A stretch of DNA of 8,235 bases from a virus (taxonomy: Duplodnaviria > Heunggongvirae > Uroviricota > Caudoviricetes). The notes under the pieces are model-generated. The model had not been told where the DNA came from, ran no database searches, and saw only the letters and a program-made list of their open reading frames with translations. Every line of letters starts with the position of its first letter. The stretch's first letter is position 1. A program made the position numbers and the translations under genes. Positions 1,844 through 8,155 of this stretch are shown piece after piece. The stretch is from positions 1 to 8,235 of IMG/VR virus record IMGVR_UViG_2778261058_000004; one strand, given 5' to 3'.

Positions 1844-2034
1844 TACTCGCTCCTGTTAGTTACAGCAATTTGAGCAATAAGATTTTCTATTTCAGCCATT
1901 ACCTCGTCATGTGGAATTGAGGGACGAGGGTCTGCAAGGCTTGACGCCACTTTAGCGCGCAACCATTCGTTGTAACTGTTTTCTTGTTCGGTAGTTTCGA
2001 ATTCTGAAACTATCGGAGAAAGGGCTGTACTCAT
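1843..2034 (-). CDS. paaA2: Small antitoxin, 63 aa (PaaA2-like, no DNA-binding domain)
   Basis: GAGGAG sits about 6 nt before ATG 2034. Acidic 63-aa product MSTALSPIVSEFETTEQENSYNEWLRAKV… immediately upstream of, and coupled to, the ParE-like toxin. Confidence 0.7.
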   Translation of the reverse strand: MSTALSPIVSEFETTEQENSYNEWLRAKVASSLADPRPSIPHDEVMAEIENLIAQIAVTNRSE

Positions 2035-2061
2035 GGCATAACTCCTCTTCTTGTACAGTGG

Positions 2062-2463
2062 TCACGCCCGGCGGCTTTTTTGTGCCGCCAACCACCGGGC
2101 AATGGTTTCTTCCATTGATTTTTTCTTGTCTTTGATTTCTTGAAGCATTTTTTCTTGGTCTTCCTCTGGAAACGCACTAAAAGCCTGGAGCAGTTCGCGT
2201 TGGCGAGGACCAATTTTCATCGTGTCAGGGGTGAAAATTTGCTCCCCCTCTTCAGGAGGCAATAAAAACCAATGCAATGGATGCCCTGTAACCTCAACCA
2301 GTTTATCCAAACTTGAGGCTTTAGGTGTAGCCTTACCGCTGACCCATTGTTGAACAGTTTGTTGTGTCACACCAATTCTACGGGCCAGCTCAGCCTGGCT
2401 CCATCCAGTTTCCTGAAGAAGCTTGCTGATTCTGTACATAGATACTTCTAGAGCGTTCATCAT
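2062..2463 (-). CDS. paaR2: DicA/PaaR2-like HTH (XRE-family) repressor, 133 aa; likely the prophage cI-equivalent and TA operon regulator
   Basis: N-terminal helix-turn-helix (WSQAELARRIGVTQQTVQQWVSG) and a C-terminal helical segment (RQRELLQAFSAFPEEDQEKM) resembling DicA architecture, with no S24 peptidase domain. Divergent from the cro-like gene. The first ATG has no SD and lies 7 nt after a TAAAAT -10 (possibly leaderless); ATG 2439 is an alternative start. Confidence 0.8.
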   Translation of the reverse strand: MMNALEVSMYRISKLLQETGWSQAELARRIGVTQQTVQQWVSGKATPKASSLDKLVEVTGHPLHWFLLPPEEGEQIFTPDTMKIGPRQRELLQAFSAFPEEDQEKMLQEIKDKKKSMEETIARWLAAQKSRRA

Positions 2464-2500
2464 TATTCAATTTTACAGGTAAATACTGTTAAAAGCATCA

Positions 2501-2537
2501 CAATAAAAAACTGTTGATCGCGTACAGTTTTTTATTG
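2501..2537. promoter_or_regulatory. Operator-like perfect inverted repeat (OR-like): CAATAAAAAACTGT-N9-ACAGTTTTTTATTG
   Basis: 14-bp perfect arms between the divergent repressor and cro-like genes, sharing the AAAAACTGT-N9-ACAGTTTTT core with 1471-1497. An extra half-site-like ACTGTT lies at 2485-2490. Confidence 0.5.
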
Positions 2538-2572
2538 TAGGCTTTGCCTGTAGTTTTTTAGAGGAGGGCAAA

Positions 2573-2845
2573 ATGCTAGATAGCACTCGCGAAAAAATTA
2601 GGCAGAAATACACTCAAGCTGAAATAGGTCGTTATATGGGGGTCGCTCAACAGACTGTTTGGCAATGGTTTAGCTTTGGTGTTCCCCCAAAGCAGGTAAT
2701 TCCGTTATGTCAGCTAATGAAGTGGGAAGTTACCCCGCATGAAATTCGCCCTGATATTTATCCTAACCCAACCGACGGGCTGCCTTGTGGAAATAAGTGT
2801 ATGGCGAATGAATCTCTGGCGGTGAACAATGAAAATCACCCCTGA
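2573..2845 (+). CDS. ydaS: Cro/YdaS-like small HTH regulator, 90 aa
   Basis: Strong SD GAGGAGGG at 2561-2568. HTH-like segment (IGRYMGVAQQTVWQWFSFG). Divergent from the repressor and followed by the YdaT-like gene, as in Rac and CP-933P (from memory). Confidence 0.75.
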   Translation: MLDSTREKIRQKYTQAEIGRYMGVAQQTVWQWFSFGVPPKQVIPLCQLMKWEVTPHEIRPDIYPNPTDGLPCGNKCMANESLAVNNENHP

Positions 2846-3350
2846 ACAGGTTCGTGAGGCTCTGGATGCTTGGGTATGCAGACCAGGAATGACACAGGAA
2901 CAGGCGACGATATTAATCACAGAAGCCTTCTGGGCCCTGAAAGAACGCCCGAACATCGATGTTCAACGTGTCACGTTTGATGATGGCGCGGTTGAGCAAC
3001 GGGCGCTTGGCGTTAACCGGGTGAAGATATTCGAACGCTGGAAAGCGATCGACACCAGGGATAAGCGGGAAAAATTCACGGCGTTGATTCCGGCAATCAT
3101 GGAGGCTATCCGGATAAGTGATTTCAGGTTGTATTGTGAAATTACTGATGGAAAAAGCATTACGTACATGCTCGCCGGGTTAAATAAAGAATATGGCGAT
3201 GTGGTGGAGTCCGGTCTGCTTTTGGCAGATCCCGCTGTTGTGGAGCGCGAGACTGACGAGCTTATAGAAAAAGCTATTGCTTTCAAGCATGCGTATCGTC
3301 AGCAATATCAACAAAAAGCCGGATGGAATTATGAGTCTTCTTTTTGCTGA
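2829..3350 (+). CDS. ydaT: YdaT-like protein, 173 aa (CII-equivalent position)
   Basis: Overlaps the cro-like gene by 17 nt. Synteny cro-like / this gene / replication initiator; the KREKFTALIPAIMEAI segment recalls Rac YdaT. Assignment is from memory. Confidence 0.7.
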   Translation: MKITPEQVREALDAWVCRPGMTQEQATILITEAFWALKERPNIDVQRVTFDDGAVEQRALGVNRVKIFERWKAIDTRDKREKFTALIPAIMEAIRISDFRLYCEITDGKSITYMLAGLNKEYGDVVESGLLLADPAVVERETDELIEKAIAFKHAYRQQYQQKAGWNYESSFC

Positions 3351-4296
3351 ACGCCCACTGGTTATTAACACTCAGCTGGCGATGAAAATAGGTCTGAACG
3401 AAGCCATTGTGTTACAGCAGCTGCATTACTGGTTGAGAGATACCGGTTCCGGCATGGAATGTGATGGTGTTCGCTGGATTTATAACACAACAGAACAATG
3501 GCTGGAACAGTTCCCGTTCTGGTCAGAGTCAACGTTAAAACGCGCATTTGCAAGTCTGAAAACGCTGGGGCTTTTGCGTTGCGAAAAGCTCAACAAATCA
3601 AAGCGTGATATGACTAATTTTTACACGATTAATTACGAGAGCGAGCTTTTAGATGGTGGCAAAGTGAGCGAATCCATCAGGTCAAAATGCGCCGCTCCAT
3701 CAGGTCAAAATGACACGATGGAAGAGGCCAAAATGGCACGCTCCATTGGTTCAAAACGACCCAATGTCATCGGGTCAAAATGGCCTGATGATCTTACAGA
3801 GAATACAACAGAGATTACTACAGAGAATAAAAACACTTCTCGTCCGGAAGCTTCGCAACCGGACATGCAGACGGCTGAACAGGATTTTTTAAACCGACAT
3901 CCTGACGCGGTTGTGTTCAGTGCGAAAAAACGCCAGTGGGGCAGCCAGGAAGATTTGGCGTGTGCGCAGTGGATCTGGGGACGAATCGTGAGTCTTTACG
4001 AGCAGGCTGCCAGCGATGATGGCGAAATCATGCGACCGAAAGAACCAAACTGGACTGCATGGGCCAATGATGTGCGCACAATGCGGATGCTGGATGGCAG
4101 AACTCACAGACAAATTTGCGAAATGTTTGGTCGGGCACAGCGGGATCCATTCTGGGTAAAAAACGTCATGAGCCCGTCAAAGCTTCGCGAAAAATGGGAT
4201 GAGCTGGTTATTCGTCTGGGGCGTTCGCCTGTACAGCGTTGTGTAAATCATATTTCTGAACCGGACACCGAAATTCCGCCGGGATTCAGGGGGTAA
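3331..4296 (+). CDS. Replication initiator (lambda O-like / YdaU-like), about 321 aa from ATG 3331
   Basis: Position between the CII-like and DnaC-like genes, and an iteron array plus AT-rich tract inside the coding sequence. The start is uncertain: the track ORF begins at TTG 3277 and ATG 3289 is also in frame; 3331 was chosen for the MSLLFAERPLV N-terminus. Confidence 0.75.
   Translation: MSLLFAERPLVINTQLAMKIGLNEAIVLQQLHYWLRDTGSGMECDGVRWIYNTTEQWLEQFPFWSESTLKRAFASLKTLGLLRCEKLNKSKRDMTNFYTINYESELLDGGKVSESIRSKCAAPSGQNDTMEEAKMARSIGSKRPNVIGSKWPDDLTENTTEITTENKNTSRPEASQPDMQTAEQDFLNRHPDAVVFSAKKRQWGSQEDLACAQWIWGRIVSLYEQAASDDGEIMRPKEPNWTAWANDVRTMRMLDGRTHRQICEMFGRAQRDPFWVKNVMSPSKLREKWDELVIRLGRSPVQRCVNHISEPDTEIPPGFRG
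3673..3835. repeat. Putative origin of replication: 4-5 iterons (consensus near TCCATCAGGTCAAAATG) at 23-bp periodicity, then an AT-rich tract with ACAGAGA(A/T)TA repeats
   Basis: Copies at 3673-3689 and 3696-3712 are identical; degenerate copies at about 3719-3735, 3742-3758 and 3767-3783. The AT-rich segment at about 3790-3835 has three ACAGAGAATA/ACAGAGATTA repeats. Confidence 0.6.
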
Positions 4297-4302
4297 CGAA
4301 GC

Positions 4303-5049
4303 ATGAAAAATATTGCGACAGGCGGTGTTCTTGAACGCATCCGTAAGCTGGCTCCGCAGCATGTAACCGCGCCATACCGAACAGTGGACGAGTGGCGCGA
4401 GTGGCAACTTGCAGAAGGCCAGAAGCGTTGCGAGGAGATCAACCGCCAGAATCGTCAGTTGTGGGTGGAAAAAATTCTGAATCGCTCCGGCATCCAGCCG
4501 TTGCACCGCAAGTGCTCGTTTGCGAATTACCAGGTGCAGAATGACGGCCAGCGATACGCGTTGAGCCAGGCGAAATCCATCGCCGATGAACTGATGTCCG
4601 GATGCACAAATTTCGCATTCAGCGGAAAACCTGGTACCGGGAAAAACCACTTAGCGGCGGCTATCGGGAATCGCCTGCTGAAAGATGGCCAGACAGTGAT
4701 TGTGGTTACCGTGGCTGATGTTATGAGTGCTCTACACGCCAGCTATGACGACGGGCAATCAGGCGAAAAATTTTTGCGGGAACTGTGCGAAGTGGATCTG
4801 CTGGTTCTTGATGAAATTGGCATTCAGCGCGAGACGAAAAACGAGCAGGTGGTACTGCACCAGATTGTTGATCGCCGGACAGCGTCGATGCGCAGCGTGG
4901 GAATGTTGACAAACTTGAACTATGAGGCCATGAAAACGCTGCTCGGCGAGCGGATTATGGATCGCATGACCATGAACGGCGGGCGATGGGTGAGTTTTAA
5001 CTGGGAGAGCTGGCGTTCAAATGTCAGCTATTTGAGGGTTGTTAAGTAA
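4303..5049 (+). CDS. DnaC-like helicase loader (AAA+ ATPase; YdaV-like), 248 aa
   Basis: Walker A FSGKPGTGKNHLAAAIG and Walker B DLLVLDEIG. Similar to E. coli DnaC along the whole length (SGIQPLHRKCSFANY…, MLTNLNYEAMKTLLGERIMDRM…). Confidence 0.9.
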   Translation: MKNIATGGVLERIRKLAPQHVTAPYRTVDEWREWQLAEGQKRCEEINRQNRQLWVEKILNRSGIQPLHRKCSFANYQVQNDGQRYALSQAKSIADELMSGCTNFAFSGKPGTGKNHLAAAIGNRLLKDGQTVIVVTVADVMSALHASYDDGQSGEKFLRELCEVDLLVLDEIGIQRETKNEQVVLHQIVDRRTASMRSVGMLTNLNYEAMKTLLGERIMDRMTMNGGRWVSFNWESWRSNVSYLRVVK

Positions 5050-5063
5050 TTTCATGAGGGCTT

Positions 5064-5459
5064 ATGGCAAAACCTTTTACACCCGAACAGCGGGAAGAGC
5101 TGAAGGCACGAATTATCGGGTTGGTACGCAAAAATGGACGCATGACGATGTCGCAACTGGAGAGAGCGACGGGAGCTGGCTGGCATTCGGTCCGACGCAG
5201 CCTTGTGGATGTACTGGCTTGTGGTGATTTATACATGTCCGGGGAATACGGTGTTTTTGCATCAGAGCAGGCGTATCGTGAATGGCGTAAGACACCGGAG
5301 AAAACAACTGACCAGACACTGATTCGAAAGTTACCAGACGGAGAAATACGCCGCTACGACAGACACCTGAACATAATCTGTCGCGAGTGCCGGAAGAGTG
5401 AGGTTATGCAGCGAGTGTTGGCGTTTTATCAGGGTAATTTTCAGGAGGTGATGGCGTGA
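5064..5459 (+). CDS. Hypothetical phage protein, 131 aa, possible winged-helix DNA-binding fold
   Basis: ATG 5064 follows GAGGG. Protein-like composition. Its stop TGA at 5457-5459 overlaps GTG 5456 of the next gene. Confidence 0.6.
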   Translation: MAKPFTPEQREELKARIIGLVRKNGRMTMSQLERATGAGWHSVRRSLVDVLACGDLYMSGEYGVFASEQAYREWRKTPEKTTDQTLIRKLPDGEIRRYDRHLNIICRECRKSEVMQRVLAFYQGNFQEVMA

Positions 5460-6428: not shown

Positions 6429-6679
6429 GTGAGTCAAAATGCCAAATTAATGGCAACAAGATAGAACCGTGTACGGCTCTGGCAAAATCCCTTGAGCATG
6501 ATGCTGAATACACGACGCGAAAAGGTCTGCTGATATACAAAATCTGGAATGAGAGTTTAACTCGCGGCCCTGATTTGGTGATGTTGCGTTCCGGTGAATT
6601 TTCTAAATCACCAGTGCGGGTTTCATTTTGTCCGTTCTGTGGTGAAAGTCTGAAAACGTGGGAGAACAGAAATGAATGA
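6425..6679 (+). CDS. Hypothetical small protein, 84 aa, with Cys pairs (C-x11-C … CPFC), possible zinc ribbon
   Basis: GTG 6425 overlaps the upstream stop (GTGA), with AGGAG at 6413-6417. The track start ATG 6392 is in frame but lies inside the previous gene. Confidence 0.5.
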   Translation: MSESKCQINGNKIEPCTALAKSLEHDAEYTTRKGLLIYKIWNESLTRGPDLVMLRSGEFSKSPVRVSFCPFCGESLKTWENRNE

Positions 6680-6983
6680 AATTAAAGAAATACCAGTAGT
6701 ACGTGATGAATATGGCTGCTGGACGCATCCTGAATATGAAAAATTCTGTGATGGTAGAGAACATATTTCAACGGAAGAGTTTAACGCATGGATGGAGGAA
6801 AATAATCTTCAATGGACCATCAGAACTATGGATGAAGATGATTTTAATCTGGACGCAGATGGTCCCGATATTGCCGCTTGGGAACCAGAGCGACCAGAGG
6901 GCGAAGGCTGGTTTGTTGGCTCTATTCATGACACTGAAGATGGTCCTGTTTGTGTATGGCTGAGAAATAAGGCTGAAGCATAA
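6672..6983 (+). CDS. Hypothetical acidic protein, 103 aa
   Basis: ATG 6672 overlaps the previous stop (ATGAATGA), with GGGAG about 8 nt upstream. Strongly acidic (DEDDFNLDADGPDIAAWEPERPEGEGW). Confidence 0.6.
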   Translation: MNEIKEIPVVRDEYGCWTHPEYEKFCDGREHISTEEFNAWMEENNLQWTIRTMDEDDFNLDADGPDIAAWEPERPEGEGWFVGSIHDTEDGPVCVWLRNKAEA

Positions 6984-7976: not shown

Positions 7977-7990
7977 TGCTGCGGGTGCTT

Positions 7991-8031
7991 GAGGCTATCT
8001 GCCTCAGGCATGAACACCAAAAGGCAGATAG
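7991..8031 (+). promoter_or_regulatory. Structured hok leader: CTATCTGCC (7995-8003) pairs with GGCAGATAG (8023-8031), with nested GAGGC/GCCTC and TGCCT-c-AGGCA hairpins
   Basis: Inverted repeats seen directly. hok-family mRNAs are known for extensive 5' secondary structure that controls translation. Confidence 0.4.
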
Positions 8032-8095
8032 AGAAAAGCCCCAGTTAACATTACGCGTCCGGCAAGACGCTTAACATTAATCTGAGGCATTCTGT

Positions 8096-8155
8096 ATGCG
8101 ACACATAGAGATTAGCCTCTTACGGACCGAAAGGTCAAGGAGAAGCAGGCTATGA
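8096..8155 (+). CDS. Leader mini-ORF (19 codons, MRHIEISLLRTERSRRSRL) ending in ATGA overlap with the hok start; mok-like coupling element
   Basis: GAGG at 8084-8087 sits 8 nt before ATG 8096. Its stop TGA at 8153-8155 overlaps the hok ATG at 8152-8154. Confidence 0.3.
   Translation: MRHIEISLLRTERSRRSRL

Follow-up and report, generated by a model that had tools for sequence, protein, structure and literature searches.

The window analysed here, i.e. the whole stretch of 8,235 nucleotides of the virus record IMGVR_UViG_2778261058_000004, corresponds to the early-right part of an enterobacterial prophage that is lambdoid and Rac-like, and contains an O-like gene coding for a replication initiator of 321 residues. 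A block of two kinds of repeats lies entirely within this open reading frame (ORF), between the conserved N-terminal domain and the C-terminal domain of the protein, and the region 3652-3866 that comprises it represents, very probably and as judged from the sequence, the vegetative replication origin of the prophage, situated in the linker-coding part of its own initiator gene. The features concerned are as follows, the iterons and the flank being listed without a strand:

3331..4296, plus strand: coding sequence of the O-like replication initiator, 321 aa (ORF and PHROG 391)
3331..3651, plus strand: N-terminal winged-helix domain, putative iteron-binding domain (AlphaFold2 predicted local distance difference test 82.9; helix/strand order typical of a winged helix-turn-helix, wHTH)
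3526..3564, plus strand: predicted recognition helix, residues 67-79 in the model; its Ser codon 3529-3531 covaries with the iteron base adjoining the CAAAATG core
3652..3674: iteron 0, degenerate in the window, GATGGTGGCAAAGTGAGCGAATC, clearer in homologs as GAGGTCAAAGTGA (repeat family D3)
3675..3697: iteron 1, CATCAGGTCAAAATGCGCCGCTC (repeat search)
3698..3720: iteron 2, CATCAGGTCAAAATGACACGATG (repeat search; also one arm of the inverted repeat I1)
3721..3743: iteron 3, GAAGAGGCCAAAATGGCACGCTC, of a variant type; homologs have the GAAGAGGTCAAAGTG variant at this place as well
3744..3766: iteron 4, CATTGGTTCAAAACGACCCAATG (repeat search)
3768..3790: iteron 5, CATCGGGTCAAAATGGCCTGATG, the counterpart of lambda iteron 4 by frame and position (GSKWP here, PSKQG in lambda)
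3796..3831, plus strand: three 12-nt ACAGAGAnTAC units, putative DNA-unwinding element (repeat search; least stable 40-mer of the gene)
3838..3866: GC-rich flank GTCCGG..GCAACCGGAC, likely the right edge of the origin module, conserved together with unrelated C-terminal domains and with a presumed function

The initiator matches PHROG 391 'replication initiation O-like' with E 2.7e-96, its residues 18-322 aligning with positions 11-298 of the 298 in the profile, and the repeats thus fall, as the initial annotation of the window had it, in the linker of an O-like protein. The start codon taken here, ATG 3331, is the annotated start in the phage mEp460_ev081 and corresponds to the MSLL start of the homologs.

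The repeat search, proposed by the same annotation as a check, recovered five 23-nt copies starting at 3675, 3698, 3721, 3744 and 3768, which are 70-100% identical to the reference copy (the one at 3721 being the weakest), as well as three 12-nt copies. The repeats previously described as four to five copies of a roughly 17-bp unit at an exact spacing of 23 bp are therefore real, but their number and unit had to be revised: there are six dyad-symmetric units at 3652-3790, five of them clear and one degenerate, and each is a full 23-nt imperfect palindrome, CATCrGGTCAAAATGrCCyGATG, abutting the next one. The exact spacing holds for three intervals (23, 23 and 23), the last one being 24. The autocorrelation at 23 nt, taken over 115 nt, reached 0.641, the maximum of the window (the next value being 0.48), whereas 300 simulations of the window by a first-order Markov model did not exceed 0.526; for the 12-nt period, the value was 0.79, which 0 of the 300 simulations reached, their maximum being 0.773. 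No second repeat cluster of the iteron kind was found within the window.

The three 12-nt units at 3796-3831 read ACAGAGAATACA, ACAGAGATTACT and ACAGAGAATAAA, i.e. ACAGAGAWTA(C) in the form seen in the window. They had been taken for an AT-rich tract with three ACAGAGA(A/T)TA repeats, and indeed the segment 3791-3835 has a GC content of 29% in comparison with 47% for the window, and its 12-mer tract, besides being the least stable 40-mer of the gene, belongs to the least stable 0.8% of the whole window; yet it is not merely AT-rich, but a sequence-specific element conserved across phyla, as detailed below. It is followed by the GC-rich flank, present in homologs as GTCCGG..GCAACCnGAC (3838-3866). 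A hairpin considered for this flank (GTCCGG/CCGGAC) is not claimed as a structure, since the substitutions in homologs are not compensatory. With regard to other signals, the sigma-70 promoter scan across 2000-5200 revealed no sites, hence no sign of an origin-internal promoter, the scans for the DnaA box and the integration host factor consensus gave one-mismatch matches only, their significance being unclear, and Rfam had no match in the origin region. As single-stranded DNA, the iterons can pair mutually (z-score -3.3) and the 12-mers stay unpaired, which is compatible with helicase entry at the 12-mers, but proves nothing. It should also be mentioned that a GATC (Dam site) at 3790-3793 fits exactly into the interval separating the last iteron from the first 12-mer; of the enterobacterial homologs inspected, most have retained it (L002, L008-L010, L012, L014 and L015), L011 and L013 being the exceptions.

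The region encodes a low-complexity linker, and the repeats could in principle be protein-level repeats of this flexible Ser/Gly/Lys and Thr/Glu segment with no role as DNA; in favour of such an explanation, a period of 12 nt is divisible by three, and 63 of 70 12-mers share one reading frame, always giving T-E-x-T. The period of 23 nt, however, rotates the frame, so that the same DNA motif is read in all three frames and the iterons encode different peptides (RSKC, SGQN, AKM, GSKR and GSKW); because of that, the array is not a peptide repeat. A comparison of the window with seven enterobacterial homologs, the N-terminal domains of which are 72-77% identical, points in the same direction. Identity at the codon positions 1/2/3 is 0.77/0.91/0.41 in the N-terminal domain, i.e. 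the usual coding pattern, 0.81/0.82/0.79 in the iterons (3652-3790), which is flat, and 1.00/0.78/0.98 in the 12-mers (3791-3831), which is inverted; the third-position identity in the repeats is thus 0.79-0.98 against 0.41 in the neighbouring domain. The similarity to these homologs collapses after approximately position 3866.

Concerning the 12-mers, their codons were followed in 70 units from 30 divergent loci, these lineages not being fully independent of each other, with a motif search that tolerated two mismatches, so that a GAA codon could be found. The consensus is ACAGAGAnTAC, and its sole free position (C 22, A 20, T 19 and G 9) is a second codon position, at which every change alters the amino acid, whereas the synonymous choices are frozen: glutamate is encoded by GAG 63 times and by GAA once, against 227:444 elsewhere in the same ORFs, and threonine by ACA in 67 of the 70 units, against 27% elsewhere. 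A few 12-mers also lie in other frames (L016, L019, L023, L027 and L031). The frame of the 12-mers as such, being conserved in 63 of 70, was found uninformative for discriminating between DNA and peptide, and the synonymous-site and codon-position tests were used instead. Taken at the level of sequence, the selection on both the iterons and the 12-mers is one that acts on DNA rather than on the peptide; the frame and codon evidence largely refutes a pure peptide repeat, which is to be regarded as extremely improbable.

If the array is a set of protein-binding sites, its most likely reader is the N-terminal domain, as the initial annotation had also proposed, and two kinds of covariation lend indirect support to this assignment. 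The first one concerns the iterons themselves. Their centre, CAAAATG, is almost universal across lineages, while the arms vary from lineage to lineage (GGTCA/TGACC, GTGCA/TGCAC, ACCCA/TGGGT, TGGCCA, TGCTCA/TGAGCA and TGTTCA/TGAACA), both sides shifting together. The left and right arms agree at the position -1 in 81% of lineages in comparison with 38% under random arm pairing, at -2 in 68% versus 45% and at -3 in 86% versus 67%; as read from the sequences, this is the signature of a symmetric dimer site.

The second one links the protein with the DNA. The alignment column with the highest mutual information to the half-site base -1 is residue 68, the second one of the predicted helix 67-79 and a neighbour of the invariant T69 and R72; its value of 1.25 bits (the next column having 0.84) was matched by 0 of 1000 label permutations. 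The base G goes with Asp in 8 of 8 lineages and A with Arg in 3 of 3, T being accompanied mostly by Ser. The lineages of the G class do not form a clade by overall identity (0.53 within and 0.51 between the classes), several of them being nearest to members of the T class. Both observations together support, at the sequence level, the binding of the iterons by the putative DNA-binding N-terminal domain. The candidate rule of one residue for one base would predict that a Ser-to-Asp replacement at the codon 3529-3531 switches the preference from GGTCAAAATGACC to GGGCAAAATGCCC.

The N-terminal domain has 16 invariant residues across 30 homologs. Pfam holds no family for the initiator, the N-terminal domain remaining without a match even at E<=10, and the only NCBIfam match for that domain (Slx4, E 0.002, below its cut-off) was dismissed as spurious. 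The best folds found in the PDB by Foldseek for the model of the domain are the N-terminal domains of the RepA_N initiators (4pql, 4pt7 and 5kbj), followed by wHTH regulators; a profile search of the PDB sequences with the domain yielded nothing meaningful and no RepA chain. In spite of the lack of a Pfam model, the domain is widespread. A tblastn search with its 115 aa found 139 phage records, including phages of Vibrio, Staphylococcus, Bacillus, Klebsiella, Pseudomonas, Listeria and Flavobacterium, it occurs also in bacterial genomes of several phyla, and an exhaustive HMMER scan collected 10,223 clusters (at 50% identity) at E<=1e-3 and 4,546 at E<=1e-10. Many proteins of the family with a length of 400-880 aa (P0125-P0215) exhibit two matched stretches, i.e. 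tandem copies of the N-terminal domain, which could serve as a built-in pseudo-dimer.

The distribution of the repeats was surveyed in 58 lineage representatives with less than 85% identity in the N-terminal domain. A strict periodicity threshold just 3' of this domain was passed by 34 of them, the period being 21-24 nt in 32 of the 34, among which are the isolated phages mEp460, HannyBb, Pseudomonas AF and Staphylococcus PHB21. The absence of the repeats from homologous initiator genes, which the initial annotation had named as an outcome that would count against an origin, is thus the opposite of what was found, the array of 21-24 nt following right after the same N-terminal domain in 32 of the 58. 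At least one 12-mer with one mismatch or fewer lies within 300 nt of the N-terminal domain in 44 of the 58 representatives; the 93 hits, all on the coding strand, correspond to 4.72 per kb, the remaining parts of these loci having 0.027 per kb, i.e. an approximately 175-fold enrichment. The last CAAAATG-type core and the first 12-mer are 19-20 nt apart in 23 of 38 representatives; most of the outliers deviate by roughly one iteron period or more, suggesting that the scan overlooked degenerate cores. The same layout can be recognised by eye in Anoxybacillus, with CCATCTGGTCAAAATGAACAGT four times and then ACCAGAGAATACTACAGAGATTACTACAGAGAAAAAAG, and in the Pseudomonas phage AF, with GGGCAATTTGCAC followed by ACAGAGATTACTACAGAGACTAC; in phages of Listeria, Flavobacterium and Vibrio, the arrays are recognisable, but more degenerate. 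Among the L050-L129 prophages, the N-terminal domains of which are at least 96% identical, the number of 12-mers ranges from one (L076 and L085) through four (L065 and L006) to five (L075), which suggests slippage and a tolerance of copy number.

The origin of phage lambda, lying in its gene O, is the obvious system for comparison. Lambdoid origins lie midway in gene O and consist of iterons, four in lambda and six in Stx phages, together with an AT-rich tract; the iterons are intrinsically bent A-tract DNA, and the O protein binds also AT-rich single-stranded DNA (PMC7466680). Shared with the lambda and Stx origins are the iterons, four to six in number and dyad-symmetric, with an A-tract at their centre (TCCCTCAAAACGAGGGA in lambda and GGTCAAAATGACC here), their spacing of about 20-24 bp, the easily melted tract directly after them and the location in the linker between a DNA-binding N-terminal domain and a loader-recruiting C-terminal one. 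The C-terminal half of the initiator is truly homologous to that of lambda O:

3769..4212, plus strand: lambda-O-like C-terminal region (in BLASTP, 148 positions aligned with residues 135-270 of lambda O at 36% identity and E 1e-27)

This alignment begins at the last iteron (iteron 5), where TCAAAA is read as Ser-Lys in both proteins, and because of that the layout is collinear with the lambda origin, the four annotated iterons of the lambda record having the corresponding location, with the AT-rich tract after them. The lambda ori arrangement ascribed earlier to the window therefore stands as far as the layout and the C-terminal half are concerned, but not for the N-terminal domain and the partner protein. 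Here, the units adjoin each other with a constant period of 23 bp; sequence-specific 12-mers make up the melted tract, lambda having one weak 12-mer match only; and the partner is a DnaC-like AAA+ loader instead of P, the initiator itself ending in a DnaT-like tail. The N-terminal domain has no match to PF04492 (Phage_rep_O), and a remote homology to lambda O residues 1-138, sought by hhalign with a profile of 30 sequences, was rejected at a probability of 0.05. Since its N-terminal domain shows no profile similarity to lambda O and its partner is DnaC-like and not P-like, the initiator is, on the sequence evidence, not a strict member of the lambda O family.

The initiators of the RepA_N theta plasmids (pSK41 Rep and pTZ2162 RepA; PDB 4pql, 4pt7 and 5kbj), as the best structural matches to the predicted N-terminal domain, offer a second comparison. 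As described in a review (PMC5703833), these initiators use an N-terminal wHTH domain of about 120 aa to bind repeated boxes in the central part of their own gene, the origin also encoding the linker, and the C-terminal domain is exchangeable, specific for the host or partner and structurally related to DnaD. An analogous layout is seen here, with the predicted wHTH N-terminal domain, the probable origin in the linker and the exchangeable C-terminal domain, albeit with no sequence match to Pfam RepA_N (PF06970). RepA_N initiators belong to plasmids, whereas the element described here is found in phages and prophages, and a 12-mer tract does not feature in the RepA_N section of that review (PMC5703833).

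Arrays of this kind need not mark the start of replication. The palindromes could be a regulatory or copy-control site for the initiator, acting in autorepression, as a roadblock, in handcuffing or in the exclusion of related phages, with replication starting elsewhere. Iteron arrays of plasmids do act also in the control of copy number, and related phages are inhibited by cloned fragments of the lambda origin, as stated in two sources (PMC3349717, PMC4488673). The array is, on the other hand, coupled in a tight register to the least stable DNA of the gene, it is collinear with the mapped origin of lambda, the mapped origin of RepA_N plasmids has this layout too (PMC5703833), and the window offers no other repeat cluster of such a kind. 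A purely regulatory array is for these reasons considered improbable, bearing in mind that regulation and origin function are not mutually exclusive. The general features of an iteron-type theta origin—direct repeats together with a putative unwinding element, both under DNA-level selection—are all present in the sequence.

With regard to the 12-mers, DnaA-trios and plasmid Rep proteins provide examples of initiators binding unwinding elements as single strands, although the 12-mer motif and its 12-nt period are unlike the 3-nt DnaA-trios and the 13-mers of oriC. The 12-mers are short, repeated, strand-specific and placed at a preferred distance from the last duplex site; such a pattern would be expected if the initiator also engages one melted strand, and lambda O does bind AT-rich single-stranded DNA (PMC7466680).

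What follows the origin varies among the relatives. The similarity among homologs is high through the N-terminal domain, the iterons, the 12-mers and the GC-rich flank, and is then lost; matches to Klebsiella phages are confined to 3388-3826. The C-terminal domain types of the relatives, assigned by reading the translations and not by profile searches, and the genes that accompany them are as follows:

lambda-O-like C-terminal domain: the window, L014, L015 and L017
a different phage C-terminal domain: L008
DnaD-like C-terminal domain: L025 and L039
next gene a DnaC/IstB-like ATPase: the window, L041 (by eye) and Vibrio VVP001
next gene lambda-P-like: L014 (by eye)
next a DnaB-like helicase: L020 and L035 (by eye)
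annotated DNA helicase as the second gene downstream: Staphylococcus PHB21
next gene a primase-helicase: phage AF and the Flavobacterium phage
no adjacent helicase or loader gene: both mEp460 records and Stenotrophomonas QH16

The origin module thus pairs with at least three types of the C-terminal domain and with varied or no partner genes. The two mEp460 records, L001 (mEp460_ev081) and L002 (mEp460_4F5), have an O-like gene with about 91% and about 80% nucleotide identity, respectively, and the same origin, with no loader gene following. On this evidence, it is the N-terminal domain with which the 12-mers travel, and not any one helicase system; the domain itself, or the complex it builds, would accordingly seem to need the 12-mer sequence.

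The sharp loss of similarity also invites the explanation that the 12-mers and the flank have been kept mainly as homologous recombination junctions for the exchange of initiator modules between phages. The breakpoints do lie at or just after the tract, the Klebsiella phage matches ending at about 3826 and the enterobacterial homologs diverging after about 3866. A junction, however, would not need the conservation from Escherichia to Anoxybacillus and Staphylococcus, the strict strand bias and the register of 19-20 nt, and breakpoints beside a conserved element are its expected by-product. This explanation is therefore taken as highly improbable.

The initiator of the window ends with a short segment of another affinity:

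4234..4293, plus strand: C-terminal tail ..EIPPGFRG, resembling the extreme C-terminus of the restart protein DnaT (NCBIfam DnaT positions 160-179 of 179, E 0.004)

The tail matches DnaT chains in the PDB at E 0.012-0.036 and is, judging by this resemblance, likely a contact for the DnaC-like loader. It is found also in L008 (AIPPGFRG) and L017 (AIPKGFRG and four more residues), which have no adjacent DnaC-like gene; the EIPPGFRG-type tail is possibly a portable peptide recruiting DnaC/DnaB. The Rac prophage (YdaU and YdaV) shares with the window the gene order, the DnaC-like loader (92.9% nucleotide identity over ydaV) and the AIPPGFRG tail, the similarity spanning from about 4261 through the DnaC-like gene (match H4), but the N-terminal part of its YdaU is unrelated, and both the 23-nt array and the 12-mers are absent there. 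With a different N-terminal domain and the repeats missing, ydaU was rejected as a link to the classical oriJ. Rac ydaU (L296, 1228-2016) contains, at about 1549-1640, short repeats with GTTAC (GGTTACAAACG, AGTTACAAAAATACG, CGTTACACAAACG and GCGTTACCAGAGG) and then a GAGGAAGAGGAAGAGGAAGA tract, and these repeats may be the iterons of that different type of initiator.

Assuming that the region is the origin, the initiation could proceed as follows. Dimers of the N-terminal winged-helix domain would bind the six abutting 23-bp palindromic iterons, the helix from about residue 67 reading the bases that flank the invariant CAAAATG centre. As the sites recur each 23 bp, i.e. about 2.2 helical turns, a phased and wrapped nucleoprotein complex akin to the O-some of lambda would be formed, which would destabilise the adjoining tract of three ACAGAGAnTAC units, beginning 20 nt from the last iteron core. 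The lambda-O-like C-terminal domain together with the DnaT-like tail would then bring in the phage DnaC-like loader with the host DnaB. The binding, the wrapping, the unwinding at the 12-mers and the recruitment of the loader are all inferred by analogy, from the precedents of lambda and RepA_N. A bolder proposal, offered here tentatively and as a possibility on which we would not rely, is that the N-terminal domain itself recognises the ACAGAGAnTAC 12-mers, probably in the form of one melted strand, as a sequence-specific element for unwinding or loading, and that they form, together with this domain and the phased palindromic iterons, a portable origin cassette present in thousands of initiator clusters of phages and mobile elements from both Gram-negative and Gram-positive hosts and working with any attached helicase system.

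Several points speak against the origin and its proposed mode of action. The literature search found no experiment on this element or on this family of initiators. The residue-base covariation was judged by label permutation and the identity check, neither of which is phylogeny-aware, and the fold matches of the N-terminal domain are modest (E about 1e-3, TM-score, i.e. template modelling score, about 0.5). In the survey, 14 of the 58 representatives have no 12-mer at one mismatch or fewer, and 24 of the 58 stay under the periodicity threshold, though several of these show degenerate arrays by eye. As 63 of the 70 12-mers occupy one reading frame, some constraint at the peptide level is conceivable. 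Finally, only 8.2 kb of the prophage are visible, and it may be incomplete or not inducible.

The last point touches on whether the origin, genuine by descent, is inactive here, being a relic in a defective prophage. In addition to the short visible stretch of 8.2 kb, the degeneration of iterons 0 and 3 in the window would fit such a relic, as would the close relatives L126 and L024, which have a frameshifted initiator ORF, yet keep the repeats. In these two, which have the appearance of prophage copies in decay, the interruption of the ORF lies upstream of the 12-mers. The window, in contrast, has intact ORFs for both the initiator and the DnaC-like protein, and its iterons and 12-mers match those of the isolated phages mEp460_ev081, HannyBb and PhiR42_1, with about 91% nucleotide identity over the gene; moreover, the weak copies are weak at the same positions in relatives, which suggests design and not decay. 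An inactive relic is thus unlikely. The regulatory, relic and recombination explanations are each possible in part, but none of them explains the register together with the strand bias and the cross-phylum conservation.

An origin within an O-like gene is what is expected for a lambdoid prophage, so that the earlier finding is a correct and ordinary annotation; the type of the origin itself, however, appears to be undescribed. Used as text strings, the motifs match only unrelated primer sequences in the literature, and a search for the origins of replisome-organizer and DnaD-like phage initiators returned nothing on this family, the older literature being thinly covered, so that an earlier description is possible. 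The closest named phage is stated to be unstudied, and O-only replication modules, i.e. those without a loader, which occur in 34 of 314 lambdoid phages, are described as not understood (PMC12315714). For the window, the replicon is pinned down to its origin, initiator and loader; beyond it, there is a widespread and experimentally untouched type of origin with an N-terminal domain that lacks a Pfam model. The dimer-binding palindrome, the candidate rule of one residue for one base and the strand-specific 12-mer at a preferred register make up a readable architecture that can be tested cheaply. It raises the questions of how an initiator couples duplex binding to melting, how the specificity of origins diversifies, which bears on the incompatibility and exclusion between co-resident prophages, and how one cassette may operate with DnaC-like loaders, with DnaB-like helicases, with primase-helicases or where the phage encodes no loader of its own.

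Concerning the rest of the window, many E. coli prophages match it at 92-97%, and no complete E. coli genome matches it in full. The gene order around the initiator is the following:

2062-2463, minus strand: helix-turn-helix repressor
2573-2845: YdaS/Cro-like
2829-3350: YdaT/CII-like
4303..5049, plus strand: DnaC-like helicase loader of the YdaV type (NCBIfam PRK12377, 2.7e-152; Pfam IstB_IS21 and Bac_DnaA)
5064-5459: DUF977

The proteins matching Pfam 'YdaS_toxin' and 'YdaT_toxin' (2573-3350) sit at the cro and cII positions, the latter of them also fitting the PHROG 'CII-like transcriptional activator'. A match to the Rfam sok antitoxin RNA, of a toxin-antitoxin locus of the hok/sok type, is located at 7983-8154 of the plus strand (106 bits, E 4.9e-24). 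Two short tandem repeats, both low-scoring, are found at 1434-1452 (GTGGG, 3.8 copies) and at 6668-6691 (AGAAATGAA, 2.7 copies).

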